The translations under genes were made by a program, and so were the position numbers. The notes beneath the pieces are model-generated. The model was given only the letters and a program-made list of their open reading frames with translations. It searched no databases and had not been told where the DNA came from. From an uncultured Actinomycetes bacterium (GTDB lineage: Bacteria > Actinomycetota > Thermoleophilia > Gaiellales > Gaiellaceae): a stretch of DNA of 64,000 bases. Below are positions 19,174 to 64,000 of the stretch, piece by piece (the first letter of the stretch is position 1; each line of letters starts with the position of its first letter). The stretch is taken from positions 39,045 to 103,044 of the forward strand of contig CAVWHA010000010.1 of assembly GCA_963754715.1 (NCBI GenBank), in the 5' to 3' direction.

Positions 19174-20343
<1,170 letters not shown>

Positions 20344-28820: not shown

Positions 28821-29532
28821 CTCCTCCCAGTCCTTACGACGCGATCGCGGAGCTCTACGACCCGTGGAGCCGGAGCGTCACCGAGGACATCCCCTTCTAC
28901 GTCGCCGAAGCTCGCAAGTCCGGCGGGCCGGTGGTCGAGCTCGGCGTCGGCACCGGCCGGATCGCGATTCCGACGGCCGCCGCCGGAATTCCGGTGATCG
29001 GCGTCGACTCCTCAGCCGGAATGCTCGACGTCTGCCGGAGGCAGGCCGAGACGGCGGGCGTGGCCGATCTTCTCGACCTGCGGCTCGGGCGACATCGCGG
29101 ATCCGCCGGTGACCGAGCGCGTCGCCCTCGTCACGTGTCCGTTCCGGCTCCTACCTGCATCTGGCCGACTCGGCGGCGCGGCTGGAAGCCCTGCGCGCTG
29201 CGCGCGAGCTGCTCCTGCCCGGCGGACGACTGATCTTCGACGTCTTCTCCCCGAGGCGCGACGACATCGAGGCGACGCACGGACGGTGGCTCGAGCGCGA
29301 GCCCGGCATCTTCGAGCGAGCGGATTGGGACTCCGAGGCGCGGACGCTGACACTCTCGGTCCGCGGGCCGGGCGGGGAGTCGACGATGCGGCTCGCCTGG
29401 GCCTCCGCCTCAGAGTGGAAGGAGGCGCTCCGCGACGCCGGCTTCGAGGTGGACCGCGTCTACGGCTGGTTCGACTACCAGCCGCACCGGCGCCAGGAGG
29501 ACATGGTGTTCGTCGCCAGCCGCCGGGACTGA
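28796..29532 (+). CDS. class I SAM-dependent methyltransferase (paralog of 28098-28820); two single-base insertions as assembled (~29090, ~29148)
   Basis: Frame a: 'PYDAIAELYDPWS...VVELGVGTGRIAIP...LDLRLG'. Frame b: 'DIADPPVTERVALVTCPFR'. Frame c: 'SYLHLADSAARLEAL...GGRLIFDVFSP...VYGWFDYQPHRRQEDMVFVASRRD*'. The joined product is collinear, residue for residue, with the upstream paralog ('LELREGDMRELSLDEPAALIYCPYRSLLHL'). Confidence 0.75.
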
Positions 29533-29952
29533 CTAGAGGAGCTGGACTTCGTCGCCGGCGGCGACCTCGCCGCTCTCGACGACCCGGGCGAGCATGCCGC
29601 GCTTCCCGTCGAGCTCGGCCTGCAGCCCGGGGCGGATCTCGTCCATCCTCGAGCACGGATCGCAGACCATCGTGATCTCGAACTCGGCCCCGCCGACGCG
29701 AACGCGCTGCCCGACGGGCCAGGAATGGACGTCGTCGCCCTCGATCGTGAAGTTCTCGCGGATGCGTCCGTACTCCACGCCGAGCGCGTTCAGGTGCTCG
29801 GCCGATGCGAACAGCACCTGCCGCTTCGTGCCGGGCCGCGCGTGCGCGCAGCCTTCGAGGCCATGCCCTTCGATCGCCTGGGCACGCTCGCACGGATCCA
29901 TCCGGCCGCTGCCCTTGGCCGGAGACGTCCAGAGCCCAGCAACCCGTGCCAT
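29533..29952 (-). CDS. MOSC domain protein
   Basis: 'EGCAHARPGTKRQVLFASAEHLNALG...RENFTIEG...GAEFEITMVCDPCSRMD' is the conserved MOSC Cys region. Start taken at MARVAGL. Confidence 0.65.
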   Translation of the reverse strand: MARVAGLWTSPAKGSGRMDPCERAQAIEGHGLEGCAHARPGTKRQVLFASAEHLNALGVEYGRIRENFTIEGDDVHSWPVGQRVRVGGAEFEITMVCDPCSRMDEIRPGLQAELDGKRGMLARVVESGEVAAGDEVQLL

Positions 29953-55810: not shown

Positions 55811-56045
55811 ATTTGGGGTTGTGGAGTCACCCAAAGACGTTGGAGATCGCCAGCTCGACGCACTGCTCGAGCGCCTCGATCGCCTAACCGCCGAAGTGCA
55901 GGGCCTGAATCGGCGGCTTGACAGCGGCGAGAACCTCGCTCCGGTCGTGCGCGAGCTCGCGTTGCTCAACGATTCGCTACAGACGCTCGCCTATGCGGCA
56001 CTCGGCCAGTCCGGCCCGCAGGTGCAGCGCCGCCGCGCCGGCTAG
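55803..56045 (+). CDS. small coiled-coil protein (hypothetical)
   Basis: 80 aa from ATG 55803 (overlapping the VanZ stop); 'LDALLERLDRLTAEVQGLNRRLD'. Confidence 0.4.
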   Translation: MGRFGVVESPKDVGDRQLDALLERLDRLTAEVQGLNRRLDSGENLAPVVRELALLNDSLQTLAYAALGQSGPQVQRRRAG

Positions 56046-57124
56046 CCGCTCGCCAACCGCCAGAGCCGGCCGTTGAGCGTGACGGCGTAGAGCTCGCCAC
56101 CCCCGTCTTCGCCGAACGACGAGATCCCCGGCAGCGAGAAGCTCTCCTTGCGGCCGCCTCGAGCCCGCCCGCCGACGACGCGCAACGTCCAGATCGCCCC
56201 GCTGCAGTTGTCGCCGTAGAAGTACCGGCCCTTCGCGGCTGCCACGGCGCTACCGCGGTAGACGAAGCCTCCGCTCACCGCGCACTCGTCGCCGCCGAGG
56301 GAGTACACCGCGATCGGGAAGACGAGATGCCCGCGCGGGTTCGGAGCCTTGCGCTCGTGGCGGGCACGGCCCTCGTAGACATCCCAGCCGTAGTTTTCGA
56401 GCCCGGGACTCCCGCGCCGCGTGAAGTCCACTTCCTCCCAGTCGTTCTGGCCCACGTCCCCGATGTACAGGTCCCCCGTCTGCCGGTCGAACGAGAAGCG
56501 CCAGGGGTTGCGGAGGCCGTAACCGACGATCTGCGGGCGGGCGCCGCGCCGGTCGACGTTGATCGCGAGCAGCTTGCCGAGCCGGCTGCCGAGGTTCTGC
56601 GCTCGATCCTCCGGATCTCCGCCACTTCCGCCGTCGCCCATACCGACGTAGAGGCGACCGTCGGGGCCGAAGGCGAGCTGGCCACCGTTGTGGTTCGAGT
56701 AGGGCTGGTCGACGAAGAGCAGCTGGCGCAGCCGCCGCGTGCCGCGGTACTCGACGACCCGCGTGTCGCCGGAGCGGTCCGTGTAGTTGACGTAGTACTT
56801 CTTGTTCTGCGCCCAGCGAGGGTGGAACGCGACCGAGAGCAACCCCTGCTCGCCGCAGCACGAGATCTGCGAGCGGAGGTTGACCAGCGTCCCCGTGATC
56901 CGGCCGTTCTGGACGATGCGGATCCGGCCGGTCTGCTCGACGACGTAGAGGCGGCCCGCCTGGCCCTTCGGCGCGGAGACATGAACCGGCGAGTCGAGGC
57001 CGGACACGACCTGGACGAACCGGTACCCGGCGGCGGCCGAAGGCGTCCTCTCGGTCACCTGCTGGCCCCCGCAGCCCGCGACCGCCACCGCGAGAGCGGC
57101 CAGCAGCACGACTCGGCCCCCCAT
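56042..57124 (-). CDS. PQQ-dependent sugar dehydrogenase (soluble glucose/sorbosone dehydrogenase family) lipoprotein
   Basis: Lipobox 'AVAVAGC'. 'GLLSVAFHP', 'YSNHNGGQLAFGPDGRLYVGMGDGGSGGDP', 'GLRNPWRFSFD..TGDLYIGDVGQN.WEEV'. ATG 57124 overlaps the trkA TGA (TGATG). The upstream 358 codons of ORF 56042-58198 are an out-of-frame overlap. Confidence 0.85.
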   Translation of the reverse strand: MGGRVVLLAALAVAVAGCGGQQVTERTPSAAAGYRFVQVVSGLDSPVHVSAPKGQAGRLYVVEQTGRIRIVQNGRITGTLVNLRSQISCCGEQGLLSVAFHPRWAQNKKYYVNYTDRSGDTRVVEYRGTRRLRQLLFVDQPYSNHNGGQLAFGPDGRLYVGMGDGGSGGDPEDRAQNLGSRLGKLLAINVDRRGARPQIVGYGLRNPWRFSFDRQTGDLYIGDVGQNDWEEVDFTRRGSPGLENYGWDVYEGRARHERKAPNPRGHLVFPIAVYSLGGDECAVSGGFVYRGSAVAAAKGRYFYGDNCSGAIWTLRVVGGRARGGRKESFSLPGISSFGEDGGGELYAVTLNGRLWRLASG

Positions 57125-57792
57125 CAGTCTCGTTTCCTCAGGAGCACGCGGCGCAGCTCGTCTTCCTTGCCCGGCTCGAGCACGGCCAGCACCTGATCCC
57201 CCGCCCGAAGCTCGGTGTCGCCGTCCGCCATCTGCGCCTGTCCCTCGCGCATCACCGTGATCAAGCGCGAGCCTGCAGGCAGAGCGAGGCGAGAGATTTG
57301 CTTGCCGACCGACGGCGAGCCGACGTCGAGCTGCACCTCGACGATCTCCAGGTTCTCCTTGCGCAGCTCGAGCAGGTGAATCAGGCCGTGCTCGGGCACC
57401 TCGTGCTCGATCATCGCGAGGATGATCGAGGTCGCCGAGATCGTCGGCGAGATCCCGATCAGGTCGAAGAGCGGCTGGTTTCGCGGATCGTTGACGCGGG
57501 CGATGACCTTCTCGACGGAGAAGTGCTCGCGCGCCATCTGGCAGATGACGATGTTGTCCTCGTCGTCGCCCGTGACGGCCACGACCAGGTCTGGGGGCCG
57601 CGCGATGCCTGCTCGCTCGAGGACGAAGAGCTCCGTGGCGTCGCCGAGCTGCGCACGGTGCTCGAACTCCTCCTCGAGGCGCTCGAAGCGGTCGCGCCCC
57701 TGCTCGATCAGCGTCACCTCGTGGCCGAGGTCGAGGACGCTTCGAGCCAGGTTCGCGCCGACCTTGCCACCGCCGGCGATGACGATGTACAC
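57124..57792 (-). CDS. trkA: TrkA-type K+ transport regulatory protein (RCK N + C domains)
   Basis: Rossmann motif 'IVIAGGGKVGANLARSVLDLGHEVTLIE', TrkA-C 'VEVQLDVGSPSVGKQISRLALP'. GTG start. Confidence 0.88.
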   Translation of the reverse strand: MYIVIAGGGKVGANLARSVLDLGHEVTLIEQGRDRFERLEEEFEHRAQLGDATELFVLERAGIARPPDLVVAVTGDDEDNIVICQMAREHFSVEKVIARVNDPRNQPLFDLIGISPTISATSIILAMIEHEVPEHGLIHLLELRKENLEIVEVQLDVGSPSVGKQISRLALPAGSRLITVMREGQAQMADGDTELRAGDQVLAVLEPGKEDELRRVLLRKRD

Positions 57793-58218
57793 CTAGCCTC
57801 GTGCCTCCACGCGCTCTTCCGACTTGCGGACGGCCGCGGTCAGGATCTCGATCGCGGTCGACGTCGGGCTGACGGTGCGGAGCCCCAGCTTCTCGTAGAC
57901 CTTCGCGCGCGCCGGATCGAGCACTCGGACGATCGTCGTCTCGATGTCGAACTGCTTCTGGGCGATCTGGCCGATGACGAGGTTCGTGTTGTCCCCGTCG
58001 GTCGCCACGACGACGGCGTCGGCCTCGTCGATGCCTGCCTCGCGCAGGACGTCGACGTCCATTCCATGGCCGACGACGAAGCCGCCCGACCAGTGCTCCC
58101 CGAGGCGTTGCAGGGCGCCTTCGTCCTCGTCGATCGTCGTGACCTCCCATCCGGTGCGATCGAGCTCCAACGCCACCGCTGAGCCGACGCGGCCACACCC
58201 GACGACGATCACCTTCAT
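57793..58218 (-). CDS. trkA: TrkA-N (RCK N-domain only) protein
   Basis: 'MKVIVVGCGRVGSAVALELDRTGWEVTTIDED'; 141 aa. Confidence 0.85.
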   Translation of the reverse strand: MKVIVVGCGRVGSAVALELDRTGWEVTTIDEDEGALQRLGEHWSGGFVVGHGMDVDVLREAGIDEADAVVVATDGDNTNLVIGQIAQKQFDIETTIVRVLDPARAKVYEKLGLRTVSPTSTAIEILTAAVRKSEERVEARG

Positions 58219-58237: not shown

Positions 58238-60166
58238 TCACACTGTGACGCCTGCCTCTTCCTCCTCGAGCACACCCTGCGGATACGCGATGACCATGAC
58301 CTCGCAGTCGGCGTTGCGCAGGACGTAATCGACCGTCGGACTGAAGAAACGAGACTGGCGGCGCCAGCGCGGCGCAGAGCCGAGAACGATCAGGTCGGCC
58401 GCATGCGTCTCGGATTCCTTCACGATCGCCTCGCCGATCGCCCGGGATCTGACGATCTCGGCCTGGACCGTGACGCCGTGCTCGGCGGCGAGCAGCCTGG
58501 CCTCCGCGAGCGAGGCGGCCGCCCGCTCTTCGGCTTCATGCATCGGTGCGTCGATGGGGTTTTCGAGCGGGACGGAGATCACGTGGATAGCCACGACCGC
58601 GCTGCTCTGCTCCTCGGCGAGCTTGATCGCGGTCGCCAGCACCTCCTCGCCGATCAGGCCGAGCTTCATCGGGACGAGGATCCGCTCGTAGACCCCCTCC
58701 GCGGCGGGCACGAGGTCTGGTTCCGCCGGCAGGACCCGGCCGAAGATCGGCTCTCTCCGCGAGATGCGCGTTCCGACATAGACGACCGCCCCGAACACGA
58801 GCCAGAGTGGACCGGCGATGCGCGTGGCCGAGTGCGTGGTGAGCGTGACGACCCAGATCGCAAAGGTGATCGGGGCACCGATGAGCGCCGCGAGCGGGAC
58901 GGCGGCACCGCGGATCCGGACATTTCCCGGCACGCGGAACGGGCGCTCGAGCTCGGGTTGGGTGAAGCGAAGACGGACCACGGCCAGCTGGGCGGCCGTG
59001 AACGCGAGCAGCACACCGAAGCTGAAGAGCGCCGCGAGGAACCGCACCTCCCTCCCGAGCAGTTCGCCGGCGAGCAGGAGAGCCGAGGCGATCAGCGCCG
59101 ACGCGACGATCGCGGGCGGCGCGATGAGCGTCCGCCGGTTCAGCGTCCCGAAGGCATGCGGGATCATGTCGTGCTGTCCGAGCGAGTACGCGAGCCGGCC
59201 TGCGCCCGAGATCGAGGTCGTGACGGCGGTGAGGAGGACGAGCGCGCCCGTCAGGCCGATGGCGATCCGGATCAGGTCCGCGACCAGGTCCGGCATCGGC
59301 CCGTCGAGAGCGGCCGCAAGCCCCATCAGCGGTGCGCGGAGCCAGTCGGTGCCGAGATCGCTCGCATAGCCGCCGGGCGCGCCGGGCTGGGGATGGGCCG
59401 GATACGACGAGATCCCGATCATCGCGATCGCGAACGAGACCAAGACGACTGCGCCGATGCCGGCGAACAGGCTCCGAGGCAGCGTTCGACCGGGCTCGCG
59501 GGTCTCCGCCGCAAGGTTCGCCACCGTCTCGAGCCCGGTGTAGGCCAGCATCGCAAGCGGGAGCGCGAAGGCGATCGAGTGCCATGTCGGCGCCGTGCCC
59601 AGGTCCAGGCCCTTCGACAGGCCGTTGGCCGAGAAGAGGAACGCGAACCCGAGGACGACGAGCAGGAGGTGGGAGACGAGCGCGATCCCGGCGATGATGA
59701 TCGCCGTCCGATAGAGGCTCGTCCGCCGCACGAGCCGCGTCCCGGCGACGCCCAGGATCACGATGATCCCGGCGACGAGATCCCACGGCTCGTGCGTGAG
59801 CCCTTCCCAGCCGATCGCGTGGCCGACGTAGTGCGGCACGAAGAGCCCGGCAAGGGCCATCACGATCAGGTAGTCGAGAATGAGGGCCCAGCCCGTGATG
59901 AACCCGAGGGGGTCGTTGAAGGCGCGGCGGACGAAGGTCGCGGCGCCCCCGGGCTCCGGGATCGCGCTCGTCCCCTCGGCGTACGAGAGCGCCACGAGCA
60001 GGAAGAGCAGACCGACGGCGAGCAGCACCCACGGGGTAAAGCCCAGCGCGTACAGCGCGACCACGCCGAGCGCGAAGTAGAGCGAGGAGGCGATCTCCCC
60101 GTACGCGACTGCGGCCAGCGACGGGACGTCGAGGACTCGCTGAAGTCCCGGGAGCTTCTTAGCCAC
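58238..60166 (-). CDS. APC-superfamily permease fused to a C-terminal universal stress protein (Usp) domain
   Basis: About 12 TM segments ('SLYFALGVVALYALG', 'EGTSAIPEPGGAATFVRRAFN') followed by Usp ('ILVPMKLG...AVVAIHVISVP...DLIVLGSAPR...FFSPTVDYVLRNADCEVMV'). GTG start. Confidence 0.85.
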   Translation of the reverse strand: MAKKLPGLQRVLDVPSLAAVAYGEIASSLYFALGVVALYALGFTPWVLLAVGLLFLLVALSYAEGTSAIPEPGGAATFVRRAFNDPLGFITGWALILDYLIVMALAGLFVPHYVGHAIGWEGLTHEPWDLVAGIIVILGVAGTRLVRRTSLYRTAIIIAGIALVSHLLLVVLGFAFLFSANGLSKGLDLGTAPTWHSIAFALPLAMLAYTGLETVANLAAETREPGRTLPRSLFAGIGAVVLVSFAIAMIGISSYPAHPQPGAPGGYASDLGTDWLRAPLMGLAAALDGPMPDLVADLIRIAIGLTGALVLLTAVTTSISGAGRLAYSLGQHDMIPHAFGTLNRRTLIAPPAIVASALIASALLLAGELLGREVRFLAALFSFGVLLAFTAAQLAVVRLRFTQPELERPFRVPGNVRIRGAAVPLAALIGAPITFAIWVVTLTTHSATRIAGPLWLVFGAVVYVGTRISRREPIFGRVLPAEPDLVPAAEGVYERILVPMKLGLIGEEVLATAIKLAEEQSSAVVAIHVISVPLENPIDAPMHEAEERAAASLAEARLLAAEHGVTVQAEIVRSRAIGEAIVKESETHAADLIVLGSAPRWRRQSRFFSPTVDYVLRNADCEVMVIAYPQGVLEEEEAGVTV

Positions 60167-60323
60167 GGCGCAGGCTCCGGTTGAGGTAGAGCCGCAGCGC
60201 GCCCGCGACGACGAGGAGCGCGCCGAGGATCAGCCCGCGCCCACCTCCCACTCCGGCAGCGACGGTGCGGGCGATGACGGCCGCGCCGAGCGCGATCATC
60301 AGCCAGGCGAGAGCGACCGTCAT
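60159..60323 (-). CDS. small two-TM membrane protein, translationally coupled between the two APC-Usp genes
   Basis: 54 aa: 'MTVALAWLMIALGAAVIARTVAAGVGGGRGLILGALLVVAGALRLYLNRSLRRG'. ATGA overlap with the upstream stop; its own stop overlaps the downstream GTG by 8 nt. Confidence 0.5.
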   Translation of the reverse strand: MTVALAWLMIALGAAVIARTVAAGVGGGRGLILGALLVVAGALRLYLNRSLRRG

Positions 60324-62215
60324 GCCGCCTGACGCCCTGCCGCGATCGCGACTCGGGACGGGCTGTGCTTCAGGACGTAGTCCACCGTCCTGCCGAAGAT
60401 CTTTCCTCGCGCAGTGCGTTGTCGCCGTGCGCCGAGGATCACGAGCTCGGCGTTGCGGCGCTCCGCCTCCGCGACGATCTCCGGCCCGGCAGCTCGGCCG
60501 CGGCGCAGACGCGCGACGGCCCGCACGCCGTAGGACTCGACGAACGCCACCGAGTTGTCGAGGACGTCGTCCGCCTCCTCCTCGGCGTCTGGAAGGCTGA
60601 CGTCGAGCGGCAAGTCGAGTGGGACCTCGATGACGTGGACGACGGCCACCGTCGAACCGCGCTCGGCGGCGAGCCGGGAAGCGGCGACGAGCGCTTCCTC
60701 CGTCTCGTTCGAACGGATGACCGGCACGACGATCGTCCGATAGTCGATGGTCAGCGCCGGCCCGAGCACGAATGCAGGCGCGCGCATGGTGGCGGTCAGC
60801 GGAATCCTCAGCCCCCGGCGCCGGTAGACCGCATAGCCGGCGAAGCCGAAGGCCAGCCAGCCGATCCCGGCCCATCTCGTTACCGGCTCCTGAACGACGA
60901 TCACGATCCAGGCGAGCAGCGTCCCAAGCCCGCCGACGACGGCGAAGACCGGCCAGTCGACGCCGCGAAAGCTGAGGTTCGGACGGGCGCGGTAGGCGAC
61001 CTCCTCGTCCTGCCGCCGGTAGCGCAGAGCGACGATCGACGCATGGGCCACGGTGAAGGAGAGCGTCGCGCCGAACGCATACATCGTCCCGAGGAAGTCC
61101 GTCTGCCCGGGCAGGATGGTCAGGATCGGGACCGCGCCGGCGAACACGAGCAGCGCAACCCACGGGGTCCTGAAGCGCGAGTGCAGCCTGCGAAAGCCCA
61201 GCGGCAGCTGGCGGTAGCTCGCCATCGCGTAGGTGATCCGCGAGGCGCCGATCACGCCCGCGTTCGTGGCGATGAAGAGGATCGTGGCCGCGAGCACGCC
61301 GACGTAGATCTCGAGGCCGTCGAGGAGCGTGCCAGGATCGAGCCCGAGGTTCTGCACGACGCCGAGCACCGGGTCGTTGGTGAAACCGCCGTCGTCAGGC
61401 CCGAGCCCGAGCTTCGTCACGTACTCCCCGTTCTGCTGGAAGACGGGCAGCGCCGAGAGCGCGATCGCCGGCAGGGTGAAGTAGATCGCGAAGACGGCGA
61501 GCGCGATCAGCTTGTAGGCGTTCGGGACGTTCCGAGGCGGATCGCGCACCTCTTCGGCGAGGTTCGAGACCGTCTCGACACCGGTGTAGGCGAGCATCGC
61601 GATCGGGATCGCGATGAAGAACTGGCTCCAGGTCGGCGCGACACCGAAGGAGACGTTGGAGGTCAGCGTGTCCAGGTCGAAGACGAGGAAGAACCCGAGG
61701 CCGACCAGCAGCGCCTGGGTCGCGAAGTCGACGACGGCGAGGAGGACGTTCAGGCTCGCCGCCTCTCGGACGCCGACGATGTTGATCCCGACCAGGAGCA
61801 CGACGACGATCGCGCCGCCGACGATGTCCCAGGGGTTCTCGCGCAGCGGCTCCCAGAACACGGACAGGTAGTGCGGAACGAAGAAGGCCGAGATGGCCAC
61901 GGTCGAGACGTAGACGAGCATCTGAGCCCAGGCCGCGCCGAAGCTCGCGAGCTCGTTGAAGGCGTGCCGAGCGAAGCTGGACGAACCGCCCGCCTCCGGA
62001 TAGCGCACCGTTCCCTCGGCGTAGGTCGCTGACGTCGCGGCGAAGATCAGGCCGGCGATGACGAAGACGAGCGGTGTCAGCCCGAGCGCAAACGCCGCCG
62101 TGACGCCGAGCGCGTAGTAGATCGAGGAGCCGACGTTGCCGTACGCGGTGGCAAAGAGCGCCGGCGTCCCGAGGACGCGCTCTAGACCTTGTTGCCTCCG
62201 CCGCCGTCTCGGCAC
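60320..62215 (-). CDS. APC-superfamily permease fused to a C-terminal Usp domain (paralog of 58238-60166)
   Basis: 'SIYYALGVTAAFALG', 'EGTVRYPEAGGSSSFARHAFN', and C-terminal Usp ('IVVPVIRSN...VAVVHVIEVPL...ELVILGARRQ...IFGRTVDYVLKHSPSRVAI'). GTG 62215. Confidence 0.85.
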   Translation of the reverse strand: MPRRRRRQQGLERVLGTPALFATAYGNVGSSIYYALGVTAAFALGLTPLVFVIAGLIFAATSATYAEGTVRYPEAGGSSSFARHAFNELASFGAAWAQMLVYVSTVAISAFFVPHYLSVFWEPLRENPWDIVGGAIVVVLLVGINIVGVREAASLNVLLAVVDFATQALLVGLGFFLVFDLDTLTSNVSFGVAPTWSQFFIAIPIAMLAYTGVETVSNLAEEVRDPPRNVPNAYKLIALAVFAIYFTLPAIALSALPVFQQNGEYVTKLGLGPDDGGFTNDPVLGVVQNLGLDPGTLLDGLEIYVGVLAATILFIATNAGVIGASRITYAMASYRQLPLGFRRLHSRFRTPWVALLVFAGAVPILTILPGQTDFLGTMYAFGATLSFTVAHASIVALRYRRQDEEVAYRARPNLSFRGVDWPVFAVVGGLGTLLAWIVIVVQEPVTRWAGIGWLAFGFAGYAVYRRRGLRIPLTATMRAPAFVLGPALTIDYRTIVVPVIRSNETEEALVAASRLAAERGSTVAVVHVIEVPLDLPLDVSLPDAEEEADDVLDNSVAFVESYGVRAVARLRRGRAAGPEIVAEAERRNAELVILGARRQRTARGKIFGRTVDYVLKHSPSRVAIAAGRQAA

Positions 62216-62254
62216 CGGCGCAGCTTACGCCGCACTACGGTGCGCCTTGCCGCT

Positions 62255-62540
62255 TCCCGGAAAGTCTTTCGACTTTCCGCGACCTTCCGGAAGCCGGGCC
62301 GCGCTCCGCGCGGCGCGGCGCGGCTGCCGGGCCTGACTCGGTGGGCTATCGGGCGGCTGTCTCTAGGCGAAACGGGCGAAGCCCGTTTCGCGGCAACGTT
62401 GCCGCGGAGCGGGCTTTGCCCGCTCCGCTCACAGACGTCCGGGCATCGCCGCCGAGTCAGGGCTGGCGGTCGCGCCGCGCACCGCGCAGCGGTGCCCGGC
62501 TTCCGAAAGGTCGCTCGAAGTCGCGAGACTTCGAGCGAAA
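62255..62540. repeat. ~280-bp nested imperfect palindrome (foldback element / highly structured leader)
   Basis: Symmetry centre is AAC|GTT at 62397/62398. Central hairpins at 62367-62391, 62389-62406 and 62404-62428. Arms 62258-62341 and 62452-62537 are reverse-complementary at roughly 3/4 to 4/5 of positions. Terminal sub-hairpins at 62258-62279 and 62512-62537. Confidence 0.85.
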
Positions 62541-62544
62541 ACGC

Positions 62545-64000
62545 CTAGCCGTGGATAGAGACGAGGAGCGGAATTATGAGGATGGCGACGATGTTGGTGA
62601 TCTTGATCATCGGGTTGATCGCGGGGCCGGCCGTGTCCTTGTAGGGGTCGCCGACGGTGTCGCCGGTGACCGCGGCTGCATGCGCGTCAGAGCCCTTTCC
62701 GCCGTACGCGCCGTCCTCGATCAGCTTCTTCGCGTTGTCCCAGGCGCCTCCGCCGGAAGTCATCGCGATCGCCAGGAAGATGCCCGTCACGATCGTCCCG
62801 ATCAGAAGGCCGCCGAGCATCTCGACGCTGATGATCCCGACGATGATCGGGAACAAGACCGGGATGAGGCTCGGGAGCATCATGTTCTTGATCGCCGAGC
62901 CCGTGACGATGTCGACGGCGCGGCTGTAGTCCGGGCGGCCGGTCCCCTCGAGGATCCCCGGGATCTCACGGAACTGCCGTCGCACCTCCTGCACGACCTG
63001 ACCGCCCACGCGTCCCACCGCCTGCATGGCGAGGGACGAGAAGAGGAACGGCATCAGGCCCCCGATGAAGAGGCCCGCGATCACCCAGGCATTCCCCAAC
63101 TCGAACCGGAGATTCGTCAGCCCCTCGTCGCTCAGTTCGGTCGTAAAGCCGTCGAAGAGGATCAGCGCCGCGAGTCCCGCCGAACCGATCGCATAACCCT
63201 TCGTGACCGCCTTCGTGGTGTTCCCCACGGCGTCGAGCGGATCGGTCACCGCGCGGACGGATTCATCCAGGTCGGCCATCTCCGCGATCCCGCCGGCGTT
63301 GTCGGTGACCGGTCCATACGCGTCGAGCGCGACGATCAGCCCCGTCATCGAGAGCTGCGCCATGACGGCGATGCCGATGTAGAAGAGGCCCTCGGTCGAC
63401 GTGTCGCCGATCGAGAAGGCGCCGACGATCCCGGCTGCGATGACGATGACGGGAAGCGCGGTCGCCTGCATCCCGATCGCGAGCCCTTCGATGATGTTCG
63501 TGGCGTGGCCGGTCAGGGAGGCCTTCGAGATCCCCTTCACGGGGGCCCAGCGGGTGCCGGTATAGAACTCGGTGATCGCCACGAGCAGGAACGTGATCGC
63601 CAGGCCGATCAGAGATGCACCGTAGAGCTCCCAGAAGTTGAACTTGTCGCCGTCGAACGCCGCGGTCACGGGGATGAAGAGCAACGCTGAGATCACCGTC
63701 GACGCGATGACGGCCTTGTAGAGCGCCGCCATGATCGATCCGCCGCGGCCGATCCGCGCGAAGAACGTTCCCGCGACGGAGGCGAGGATCGCCACGGCCC
63801 CGATGACGAGGGGGAAGTGGACGATCTCGGTCGACGGGAAGTTCACGGCGCCGAGGAACATCACGGCGACGAGCGTCACCGCGTAGGTCTCGAAGAGGTC
63901 GGCCGCCATCCCGGCGCAGTCGCCGACGTTGTCGCCCACGTTGTCCGCGATCACGGCGGGATTGCGCGGATCGTCCTCCGGAATCCCGGCCTCGATCTTG
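62545..64000 (-). CDS. hppA: membrane-bound H+-translocating pyrophosphatase; N-terminus lies off the right edge
   Basis: '[24 protein letters not shown]', 'GGAWDNAKK', '[20 protein letters not shown]'. The frame is open to nt 64000. Confidence 0.95.

Follow-up and report, generated by a model that had tools for sequence, protein, structure and literature searches.

A dispersed, modular palindromic repeat family at gene ends in Gaiellaceae, represented by an inverted dimer between hppA and an APC-Usp gene

Background

We studied an imperfect palindrome of about 280 bp in a 64,000-nt stretch of DNA from an uncultured bacterium of the family Gaiellaceae (GCA_963754715.1, contig CAVWHA010000010.1, 39,045-103,044; hereafter the window, to which all coordinates refer unless another locus is named). 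The palindrome (62254-62540) fills most of the spacer between hppA, which encodes an H+-translocating pyrophosphatase, and a gene for an APC-family permease fused to a Usp domain (the APC-Usp gene). Both genes lie on the minus strand according to the list of open reading frames (ORFs) and Pfam. An earlier sequence-only reading had described a long nested palindrome centred on AAC/GTT and offered four explanations: a foldback element resembling a miniature inverted-repeat transposable element (MITE), a structured 5' leader or small RNA (sRNA) of a K+/APC operon, a cruciform protein-binding site, or an insulator between two highly expressed units. Here we report that two modular repeat units of about 135-141 nt, inverted and joined tail to tail (H3 to H3), make up the palindrome, and that the unit belongs to a family dispersed at gene ends in Gaiellaceae-type metagenome-assembled genomes (MAGs). 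What appeared to be a unique 'regulatory' palindrome of 280 bp is one copy of a recognisable repeat family.

Results

The palindrome is an inverted dimer

The long nested palindrome was borne out by a repeat search, by blastn and by its predicted fold. When compared with the window by blastn, the spacer matched its own reverse complement over 272 nt at 77.2% identity (E 5.5e-53), and nothing comparable was found elsewhere in the 64 kb. The repeat search gave outer arms at 62262-62344 and 62449-62531 (83 nt, 81% complementary) and inner arms at 62354-62397 and 62398-62441 (44 nt, 77% complementary), around the centre at 62397/62398. The RNA fold of the spacer had an energy of -232.7 kcal/mol, against -163.5 +/- 5.1 for shuffled sequences (z -13.5; 0 of 100 shuffles as good). 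The pairing of the outer arms, the perfect block and the four mirror-image hairpins (62258-62279, 62368-62392, 62404-62428 and 62511-62538) were all found as first described; the 10-mer CCTGACTCGG / CCGAGTCAGG occurs only at 62332-62341 (plus strand) and 62452-62461 (minus strand). The palindrome is not an assembly artefact, since orthologous dimers are present in two independent assemblies, L196 and L009 (labels of this form denote genomic loci fetched for comparison).

Most blastn matches covered just one half of the palindrome, which therefore consists of two copies of a family unit; the alignment of copies and the matches of both halves to a covariance model (CM) also back this reading. 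The model, R1, was built from 13 aligned copies (MAFFT alignment, RNAalifold consensus). Each unit contains, in order, a hairpin H1, a conserved linker, a GC-rich hairpin H2, a poorly conserved middle region of about 40-50 nt and a hairpin H3. The consensus of H1 is (T)TTCGCNGAAAGTC-tnnc-GACTTTCNGCGA; that of the linker between H1 and H2 is ..GAAGCCGGGCG (also written ..CGGAAGCCGGGCG); and that of H3 is GCGRARCGGGC-nnn-GCCCGYTYCGC, followed by GGC(GA). CM R1 found no further copies of the family in the window.

A family dispersed in Gaiellaceae

An exact-pattern scan for H3 in species-representative genomes gave more than 115 loci, mostly in Gaiellaceae-type MAGs and many per genome; in the loci selected in this way, CM R1 gave 99 matches and nhmmer 91 full-length units. 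The H3-pattern matches in other phyla were bare H3-like hairpins and not family members. An independent scan for the H1 pattern gave more than 116 loci, all of which, among the matches listed, came from Gaiellaceae-type MAGs, and added 50 full units and 33 other H1 architectures. So far, about 140 full units have been found, besides more than 30 forms that are partial or mosaic, and the true members of the family are all in Gaiellaceae-type MAGs; neither pattern matched any viral contig (0 matches). The relatives of the window are also Gaiellaceae-type MAGs, with at most 92% identity in the APC protein and at most 97% in the hppA C-terminus. A literature search found no paper on repeats in Gaiellales.

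Copy numbers are lower bounds: one 2.38-Mb contig carried at least 8 loci and one MAG at least 18, or roughly 10-20 or more per genome of about 2-2.6 Mb. Because repeats break assemblies, and several copies are located at contig ends, the copy numbers in MAGs are underestimates. Short-read MAG contigs often end inside a unit (L009 (1-60), L087, L091, L110, L114, L126, L129, L147 and L171); in L009, an unusual poly-C run inside the dimer forms the contig end.

H1, a palindrome of 26-30 nt, occurs in more than 170 copies across MAGs, alone or inside units. Other than in full units, it was found by itself directly past stop codons, joined to H3 by a short spacer with no H2 between them, combined with H2 and a different terminal hairpin, and beside tRNA genes. 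Because H1 recurs in several arrangements, and because two subfamilies differ in their linker and middle regions, the family is modular, as are the bacterial interspersed mosaic elements (BIMEs) of E. coli. At L205 3357-3382, L225 6086-6111, L229 1523-1548, L255 1674-1699 and L268 1536-1561, a variant H1 (CGCCGAAAGTCT..CGACTTTCGGCGG) stands directly past a TAA stop, and the hairpin after it (..GCCGGCACCGGCAAAGCCGGCACCGGC..) is conserved but of another kind. These loci may represent a further mosaic type of the same system.

Identities in H1-H2, the middle region and H3 were 0.79, 0.57 and 0.87 within genomes, versus 0.75, 0.55 and 0.87 between genomes, and no near-identical copies were found within a genome. 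As identity within genomes equals that between genomes, there was no recent burst. Each half of the window palindrome matches copies in other genomes as well as or better than its partner (the left unit is 0.91 identical to L154 in H1-H2, and 0.78 identical to the right unit). We rejected an origin of the dimer by recent local inverted duplication, because the two halves resemble copies elsewhere at least as much as they resemble each other. The halves are two diverged (about 77% identical) members of a dispersed family, and the palindrome is not the locus-specific element suggested earlier.

Placement at gene ends

Placement was counted with crude gene calls (long ORFs with high G+C at third codon positions). 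By these calls, a gene 3' end was present within 30 nt of 75 of the 91 units (about 82%): on the 5' side only in 33, on both sides in 26 and on the 3' side only in 16. The H1 end was 0-25 nt past a same-strand stop codon in 59 units, and 26 units abutted the stop codons of convergent genes at both ends, making up the entire intergenic spacer. Forty-four units were between convergent genes and just 6 in divergent gaps. In about 8 units, the upstream ORF terminated at a TGA inside H1 (CGC TGA AAG). The H1-ascertained set gave a replicate: a same-strand stop was found within 30 nt upstream in 40 of 70 H1 copies, with six using the internal TGA, and the distance from H1 to the stop was -6 to +14 nt in 35 of the 70. 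The genes next to the units were ordinary housekeeping genes in a Pfam scan.

All dimers (window/L196/L009, L189/L183, L132 and L181) were tail-to-tail, with the H1 of each unit towards the nearest gene end. Dimers also follow tRNA-Leu(CAA), which ends 12 and 26 nt before two of them; thus, the association is with transcript ends and not with translation stops as such. TAG stops were mildly enriched beside units (58% vs 41% background, p 0.02), the enrichment being mild because TAG is already common in this lineage. CTAG or TAG as a fixed terminus or target-site duplication was rejected because the distance from stop to unit varies.

Structural constraint

The 99-copy alignment was fitted to the model, a procedure that favours structure, and in it 97.9% of stem cells were paired and 30 of 33 stem pairs had compensatory changes (203 cells). 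The margin over the controls was very large: the stem measures were reached by 0 of 500 shuffles, and sliding the partners gave 34-45% paired. H1 (helix 1 of the family) was 97.9% paired, with 12 of 12 pairs covarying, and H3 (helix 4) was 99.3% paired, with 9 of 11 covarying. On the initial MAFFT alignment, RNAalifold already gave 7 covarying pairs across all three hairpins. The middle region is just about 55% identical while the stems hold. The sequence-only reading had noted that where the mirror hairpins differ, both sides of the stem had changed; this is real and forms part of the family-wide compensatory pattern. Its view that the small hairpins are conserved beyond the long foldback was confirmed by the covariation.

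The stem constraint is Watson-Crick only. Among the non-Watson-Crick stem cells, G-U/U-G (20) was not commoner than A-C/C-A (31). An element selected solely as sense RNA normally tolerates G-U. The symmetry between G-U and A-C has one of three meanings: that both strands must fold, that a DNA hairpin is recognised, or that quasi-palindromes are corrected.

Mobility and turnover

The family is dynamic. We found five orthologous pairs of filled and empty sites (sites A-E), and the hppA site itself is also polymorphic. All five empty alleles are convergent genes with abutting or overlapping stop codons containing CTAG (TAGCTAG, GGCTAGCC, GGCTAGAG, TGACTAG and GGCTAGCGG), CTAG being confounded here with the overlap of convergent stop codons. 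Filled alleles keep both ORFs nearly intact. The window has the empty allele at two sites. At about 56040-56047 (GGCTAGCC), a glucose/sorbosone dehydrogenase-like gene (56042-58198, minus strand) and a convergent plus-strand gene have overlapping stops in a CTAG palindrome; the orthologous site is filled in L134 and L088, and a TGA inside H1 closes the dehydrogenase ORF there. At 29530-29542 (TGACTAG...), the stops of two convergent genes abut (TGA/CTA), and L093 carries a unit there.

At orthologous filled sites, the unit alone was inverted between two genomes whose flanks were 92-96% identical; its boundaries lay within 1-2 nt of TTTCGC...CGCGGC. Counted over seven or more sites, 14 orthologous filled pairs were inverted and 24 had the same orientation. 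Units at one site were often no more alike than random family members; in one example pair, the flanks were 94% identical and the units just 0.76. Monomer and dimer, as well as full unit and H3 only, were found as alternatives at orthologous sites. Only an H3-like hairpin, sometimes with extra palindromic flanks, was seen at L161 6890-6914, L178 1424-1448 and L138 2734-2758, where others have a full unit; such sites may be either deletion relics or pre-existing hairpins beside which units insert.

The five filled/empty comparisons gave no consistent target-site duplication; at best, a degenerate (C)TAGCGGCC repeat can be made out at site E alone. Terminal inverted repeats were not found, and the unit ends (TTTCGCNG... 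and ...TTYCGCGGC) form a short direct repeat. In the fetched loci, we found neither an insertion sequence (IS) with matching ends nor an H1 far from H3, as the ends of an autonomous element would be. The genes between paired units (ferritin, glmS, glmM, methylmalonyl-CoA mutase and sigma-70) included no transposase by Pfam. The suggested foldback MITE-like element was near the mark in that many dispersed copies exist in other genomes, but the flanking target-site duplications by which a MITE was to be recognised are not consistent, and there is no terminal inverted repeat.

Local history and the APC promoter

In more than 45 relatives hppA lies near the APC gene, and 0 of these, the closest ones included, carry the element in the orthologous spacer downstream of hppA. 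The closest relatives carry the family at other sites. L196 is a metagenome contig with about 89% nucleotide identity to the window, and its order is hppA, 31 nt, the sense unit, the junction GGCAACGTTGCC, the inverted unit, 12 nt, trkH-trkA (convergent to hppA), and APC1 with its own promoter box. The junction GCGGCA(A/G)CGTTGCCGC is common to L196 and L009; in L009, this dimer junction lies next to the stop codon of trkH, where the contig ends. Apart from a missing trkH-trkA segment of about 2.9 kb (window 62216-62253 vs L196 5231-8157), the window and L196 are collinear. The trkH-trkA pair is present between hppA and APC in L196, L001, L006 and others, and it varies among relatives, in which the distance from hppA to APC is either less than 0.8 kb or 2.6-3.7 kb. 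The dimers of the window and L196 differ by two compensatory stem changes and one mismatch, with most substitutions in the middle regions.

The neighbour had been described as an APC-Usp/TrkA operon, but neither trkA nor trkH, nor any other trk homolog, was found anywhere in the window. A trkH remnant in the 38-nt stretch 62216-62253 was rejected because its alignment was unconvincing, and a match to the TrkA N-terminus at 62148-62231 is merely the antisense of the conserved APC N-terminus. Judged from these gene orders, the dimer arose between convergent hppA and trkH, and the genome of the window then lost trkH-trkA. This loss left the left unit (62254-62394) orphaned beside the APC-Usp promoter. 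The dimer fits the rule of the family, with one sense unit behind each convergent gene.

The APC-Usp gene has a separate promoter signal. A TANNNT hexamer (mostly TAGAGT; TAAGCT in the window) is present exactly 6 nt before the GTG or ATG of APC in about 27 of 29 relatives. A TANNNT box 6 nt before the start is the leaderless-promoter geometry in mycobacterial and other actinobacterial transcriptomes. Most likely, transcription of the APC gene begins at the start codon itself; the palindrome lies farther upstream, beyond the promoter. Because the conserved leaderless-type box is between the palindrome and the start codon, the palindrome is not the APC leader, and the proposed structured 5' leader or sRNA of the APC genes was not supported. 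A leader of a K+/APC operon does not suit the locus either, as the APC-proximal half originally faced the convergent trkH, which this genome has lost.

Table 1. Features of the hppA/APC-Usp region in the window
Feature	Position	Strand	Basis
hppA 3' part (H+-translocating pyrophosphatase); stop TAG 62545-62547; runs past the window end	62545..64000	-	Pfam H_PPase E 2.9e-189, ORF list
Repeat unit R, sense behind hppA; 5' end 4 nt past the hppA stop	62401..62540	-	CM R1 142.8 bits, E 1.5e-28; nhmmer 106 bits
H1 of unit R, TCGCTCGAAGTC-tcgc-GACTTCGAGCGA	62510..62539	-	Perfect 12-bp arms 62511-62522 / 62527-62538
H2 of unit R, GCCGGGCACCGC-tgc-GCGGTGCGCGGC, with linker CCTTTCGGAAGCCGG before it	62474..62500	-	Repeat search, alignment; compensatory A-T to G-C vs L196
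H3 of unit R, GCGGAGCGGGC-aaa-GCCCGCTCCGC	62404..62428	-	Perfect 11-bp arms
Junction AAC/GTT, where the H3 ends of both units meet (palindrome centre)	62395..62400		Sequence
Repeat unit L, inverted partner, orphaned beside the APC promoter	62254..62394	+	CM R1 135.4 bits, E 5.3e-27; context in L196 and L009
H1 of unit L, (TCC)CGGAAAGTC-tttc-GACTTTCCG(CGA)	62255..62282	+	Alignment; compensatory G-C to A-T vs L196
H2 of unit L	62293..62319	+	Alignment, RNAalifold consensus
H3 of unit L, GCGAAACGGGC-gaa-GCCCGTTTCGC	62368..62392	+	Sequence, alignment, RNAalifold
-10-like hexamer TAAGCT (TANNNT), 6 nt before the GTG start at 62215; outside the palindrome	62222..62227	-	Spacing conserved in relatives
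APC-family permease fused to Usp domain, first of two tandem paralogs	60320..62215	-	Pfam AA_permease_2, Usp
Second tandem APC-permease/Usp paralog	58238..60166	-	Pfam

Discussion

The family is probably a mobile transcript-end element resembling the repetitive extragenic palindromic (REP) sequences, BIMEs and the Tuberculosis Rho-independent terminator (TRIT). Its units would be transcribed at the ends of mRNAs, in either strand, and their very stable Watson-Crick hairpins could serve as transcript-end structures, either by non-canonical or factor-assisted termination or as a barrier to 3' exonucleases or read-through. In the window, a foldback of about 135 bp would insulate the APC-Usp genes, which are probably leaderless and have their own promoter, from the transcript of hppA. 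The family may spread and turn over by a mobilisation that leaves neither terminal inverted repeats nor target-site duplications. Among the four explanations offered at the outset, the insulator and the MITE-like element came nearest.

Several observations weigh against this interpretation. The lack of G-U preference is unusual for selection on RNA only, and equally fits selection at the DNA level or self-correction of quasi-palindromes. No U-tract was found past any hairpin on either strand of the palindrome, 0 terminator-like sites were found in 61900-62900, and the consensus flanks of the units have no T runs on either strand. Without U-tracts, the units are not canonical intrinsic terminators, and mycobacterial RNA polymerase has been reported to need U-tracts (PMC3993855). 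Strong termination would also shut off the downstream gene wherever a unit occupies a short gap between co-directional genes, as at least four units do (gaps of 60 nt or less). At the empty sites, convergent genes work with overlapping stops and no element. No Y1 transposase was found near copies by tblastn with IS200 TnpA and E. coli RAYT (REP-associated tyrosine transposase) queries in about 1.5 Mb of fetched loci (best E 0.11), which was a weak test.

The main rival is a selfish element of the single-stranded DNA (ssDNA) type tolerated at gene ends. In its pure form, a non-autonomous element would have hairpins recognised by an ssDNA transposase (HUH/Y1-type, RAYT- or IS200/IS605-like) or another transposase, gene ends, above all those between convergent genes, would be merely harmless sites, and there would be no host function. 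It would account for the presence/absence differences, orientation flips, monomer/dimer changes and copy replacement at orthologous sites; the hairpins at both ends, with no terminal inverted repeats and no consistent target-site duplications, are the footprint of ssDNA transposition; and Watson-Crick-only covariation suits DNA hairpins. The CTAG at convergent stops in five of five empty sites would suggest a preferred target, and as empty sites exist, the element is dispensable at any one site. We nevertheless regard this explanation as unlikely. No transposase was seen in about 2 Mb of fetched flanks, a weak test in which Pfam gave housekeeping genes only, and there are no near-identical copies within a genome. 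The stems are 98% paired while the middle is near-random, and decayed relics are few, which means either constraint in place or very fast deletion. H1 alone recurs past stops and tRNA genes in many architectures, which resembles a functional module in repeated use more than it does one transposon, and it faces the gene end beyond chance (33 vs 16 at one-sided sites), all dimers being tail-to-tail. E. coli REP and BIME sequences are bound by gyrase and IHF. An analogous DNA-level site, in which a nucleoid, topoisomerase or replication/segregation factor would bind the modules in duplex or cruciform form and the gene-end location would reflect supercoiling relief between convergent units, would agree with the strand-symmetric Watson-Crick-only constraint, the enrichment between convergent genes, the conservation of the unpaired linker GAAGCCGGGCG, which suggests sequence-specific recognition, and the report that E. 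coli REPs are gyrase targets (PMC3733652). The asymmetry of the unit, with its H1 end preferring the stop-codon side, is hard to square with a purely duplex-DNA site, and the copy number is modest (roughly 10-20 or more per genome, as lower bounds); thus, we consider such a site improbable.

The two remaining explanations have hardly any probability left. A locus-specific cis-regulator, that is, a 5' leader, riboswitch or sRNA for the APC-Usp genes or an attenuator tied to hppA, was attractive because the palindrome is directly upstream of the APC-Usp gene and has an extremely stable fold. It is effectively refuted by about 140 homologous units behind unrelated housekeeping genes, by the lack of the element in the more than 45 orthologous hppA-APC spacers, by the conserved leaderless-type -10 box of APC outside the palindrome, and by the APC-proximal unit, which belongs to trkH in relatives. 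Neither the window spacer nor a second-subfamily copy had an Rfam match above the gathering score; the SAM-IV match over unit R (62436-62549, plus strand; 29.5 bits vs a gathering score of 38), which would favour a riboswitch, is below threshold and on the strand opposite to both genes, and we judged it a spurious product of GC-rich nested hairpins. A match to MIR1437 was also rejected (34.6 bits vs a gathering score of 168). A neutral local inverted duplication, or chance self-complementarity of GC-rich DNA, could be imagined in a genome of 69% G+C, where hairpins are frequent, and the halves do share a perfect 10-mer within an otherwise variable middle. The family data refute it: the halves match copies of other genomes as well as or better than each other, the dimer is conserved in L196 with compensatory changes, and the self-alignment (E 5e-53) and fold (z -13.5) are far from chance.

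A bolder form of the transcript-end reading can be considered, which we put forward only tentatively and think rather doubtful. Gaiellaceae might use a sequence-conserved, factor-recognised, bidirectional transcript-end signal, in which H1, either by itself or within H1-H2-H3 mosaics, would take the place of U-tract terminators. The signal would also be able to move, inserting with precision where convergent stops abut or overlap, and flipping or being replaced in place. If true, this would amount to a 'portable terminator' system that has a protein partner dedicated to it and that corresponds to TRIT among actinobacteria while being demonstrably mobile.

The family is new but of a familiar kind, that of REP/BIME- or TRIT-like gene-end elements. 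REPs lie for the most part behind ORFs, where the neighbouring genes converge or run in one direction; some of them contribute a stop codon, they can pair up as inverted dimers, and frequent G-T pairing has been noted in them (PMC3733652). REP, BIME and REPIN, known from Proteobacteria such as E. coli, Pseudomonas and Stenotrophomonas, are short extragenic palindromic modules, often in inverted pairs with a larger hairpin fold, that form mosaics with other motifs and persist long with diverged copies (PMC3733652, PMC3337134). The present family shares the palindromic modules, the placement at gene 3' ends, the supply of stop codons, the inverted pairs and the mosaicism; H1 is comparable in behaviour to a REP, whereas the full H1-H2-middle-H3 unit, with its dimers, is comparable to a BIME or REPIN. 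However, it has no GTAG or CGTC tag: H1 has (T)TT before and ACC after it, and H3 has (G/A)AG before and GGC(GA) after it. RAYT was not found in the fetched DNA (again by the weak test), and membership of the REP family is therefore not supported. In addition, the unit is about 135 nt with three different hairpins, whereas a REP is a 20-40-nt palindrome; copies number tens per genome (lower bounds) and not hundreds; G-U is not enriched; and the host is an actinobacterial lineage, whereas REPs belong to Proteobacteria.

TRIT, of which 147 palindromic, mostly bidirectional copies are tightly placed at stop codons, was reported only in Mycobacterium, without classical U-tract context, and extra cellular machinery was proposed for it (Gardner et al. 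2011, PMC3152330). As compared with this published description, the present family is likewise actinobacterial and lineage-restricted, conserved in sequence and structure, present in about 10^2 copies and narrowly placed at or over stops, and its Watson-Crick-only pairing is compatible with both strands. TRIT is a single hairpin, whereas the present family is modular, with three hairpins and a variable middle, and shows insertion, inversion and turnover polymorphism. We treat TRIT as an analogue of the present family and do not count the family as a member of it.

Other known elements are similar in part. Correia/CREE in Neisseria, ERIC/IRU in enterobacteria, and BOX and RUP in pneumococcus are foldback elements of 100-200 nt in transcribed intergenic DNA, polymorphic among strains, that may terminate, stabilise or process transcripts; the modular boxA-B-C of BOX is like the mosaics of the present family. 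MITEs share the presence/absence polymorphism at orthologous sites, but the terminal inverted repeats, consistent target-site duplication, near-identical copies and related autonomous IS of a MITE were not found in the fetched loci. PATEs, which derive from IS200/IS605, have subterminal hairpins at both ends, asymmetric ends and no terminal inverted repeats or target-site duplication. The present family is similar to them in all these respects and in its DNA-type Watson-Crick constraint, and differs in that TnpA/Y1 was not found (by the weak test), that no conserved tetranucleotide is evident 5' of the left end and that copies are not near-identical. Intrinsic terminators are also GC-rich stem-loops just past stop codons, and H3-type hairpins (GCGGAGCGGGC-nnn-GCCCGCTCCGC) occur alone past stops in unrelated phyla; the family differs from them by having no U-tract and a sequence conservation far above what a terminator needs. 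An integron attC site, one long imperfect hairpin with an R''/R' core that occurs in arrays behind cassette ORFs, was rejected: the unit has three separate hairpins, single copies are scattered behind housekeeping genes, and GTTGCCG at the junction does not match the core GTTRRRY.

Classical U-tract terminators are scarce in high-G+C Actinomycetota, which raises the question of how transcripts end in these bacteria, and TRIT is one of the few sequence-conserved terminator candidates. A second, unrelated-looking actinobacterial family coupled to stops makes factor-recognised, possibly mobile terminator modules more testable, and in the present family the stop coupling is joined with insertion/inversion polymorphism and Watson-Crick-only covariation. 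The kind of element (REP/BIME/TRIT-like) is already familiar. In practice, covariance model R1 can be used to mask or annotate the family across Gaiellaceae MAGs.

Other features of the window

The two tandem APC-Usp paralogs are about 35% identical to each other, and the pair is conserved in relatives. The only further response to CM R1 in the window was a weak match at 20247-20342 (27.8 bits), which we rejected as an unrelated perfect 28-nt palindrome after a stop codon. This palindrome, GCGGTGCCAGGAATATTCCTGGCACCGC at 20313-20340, is 5 nt past a minus-strand TGA stop and directly before the next ORF.

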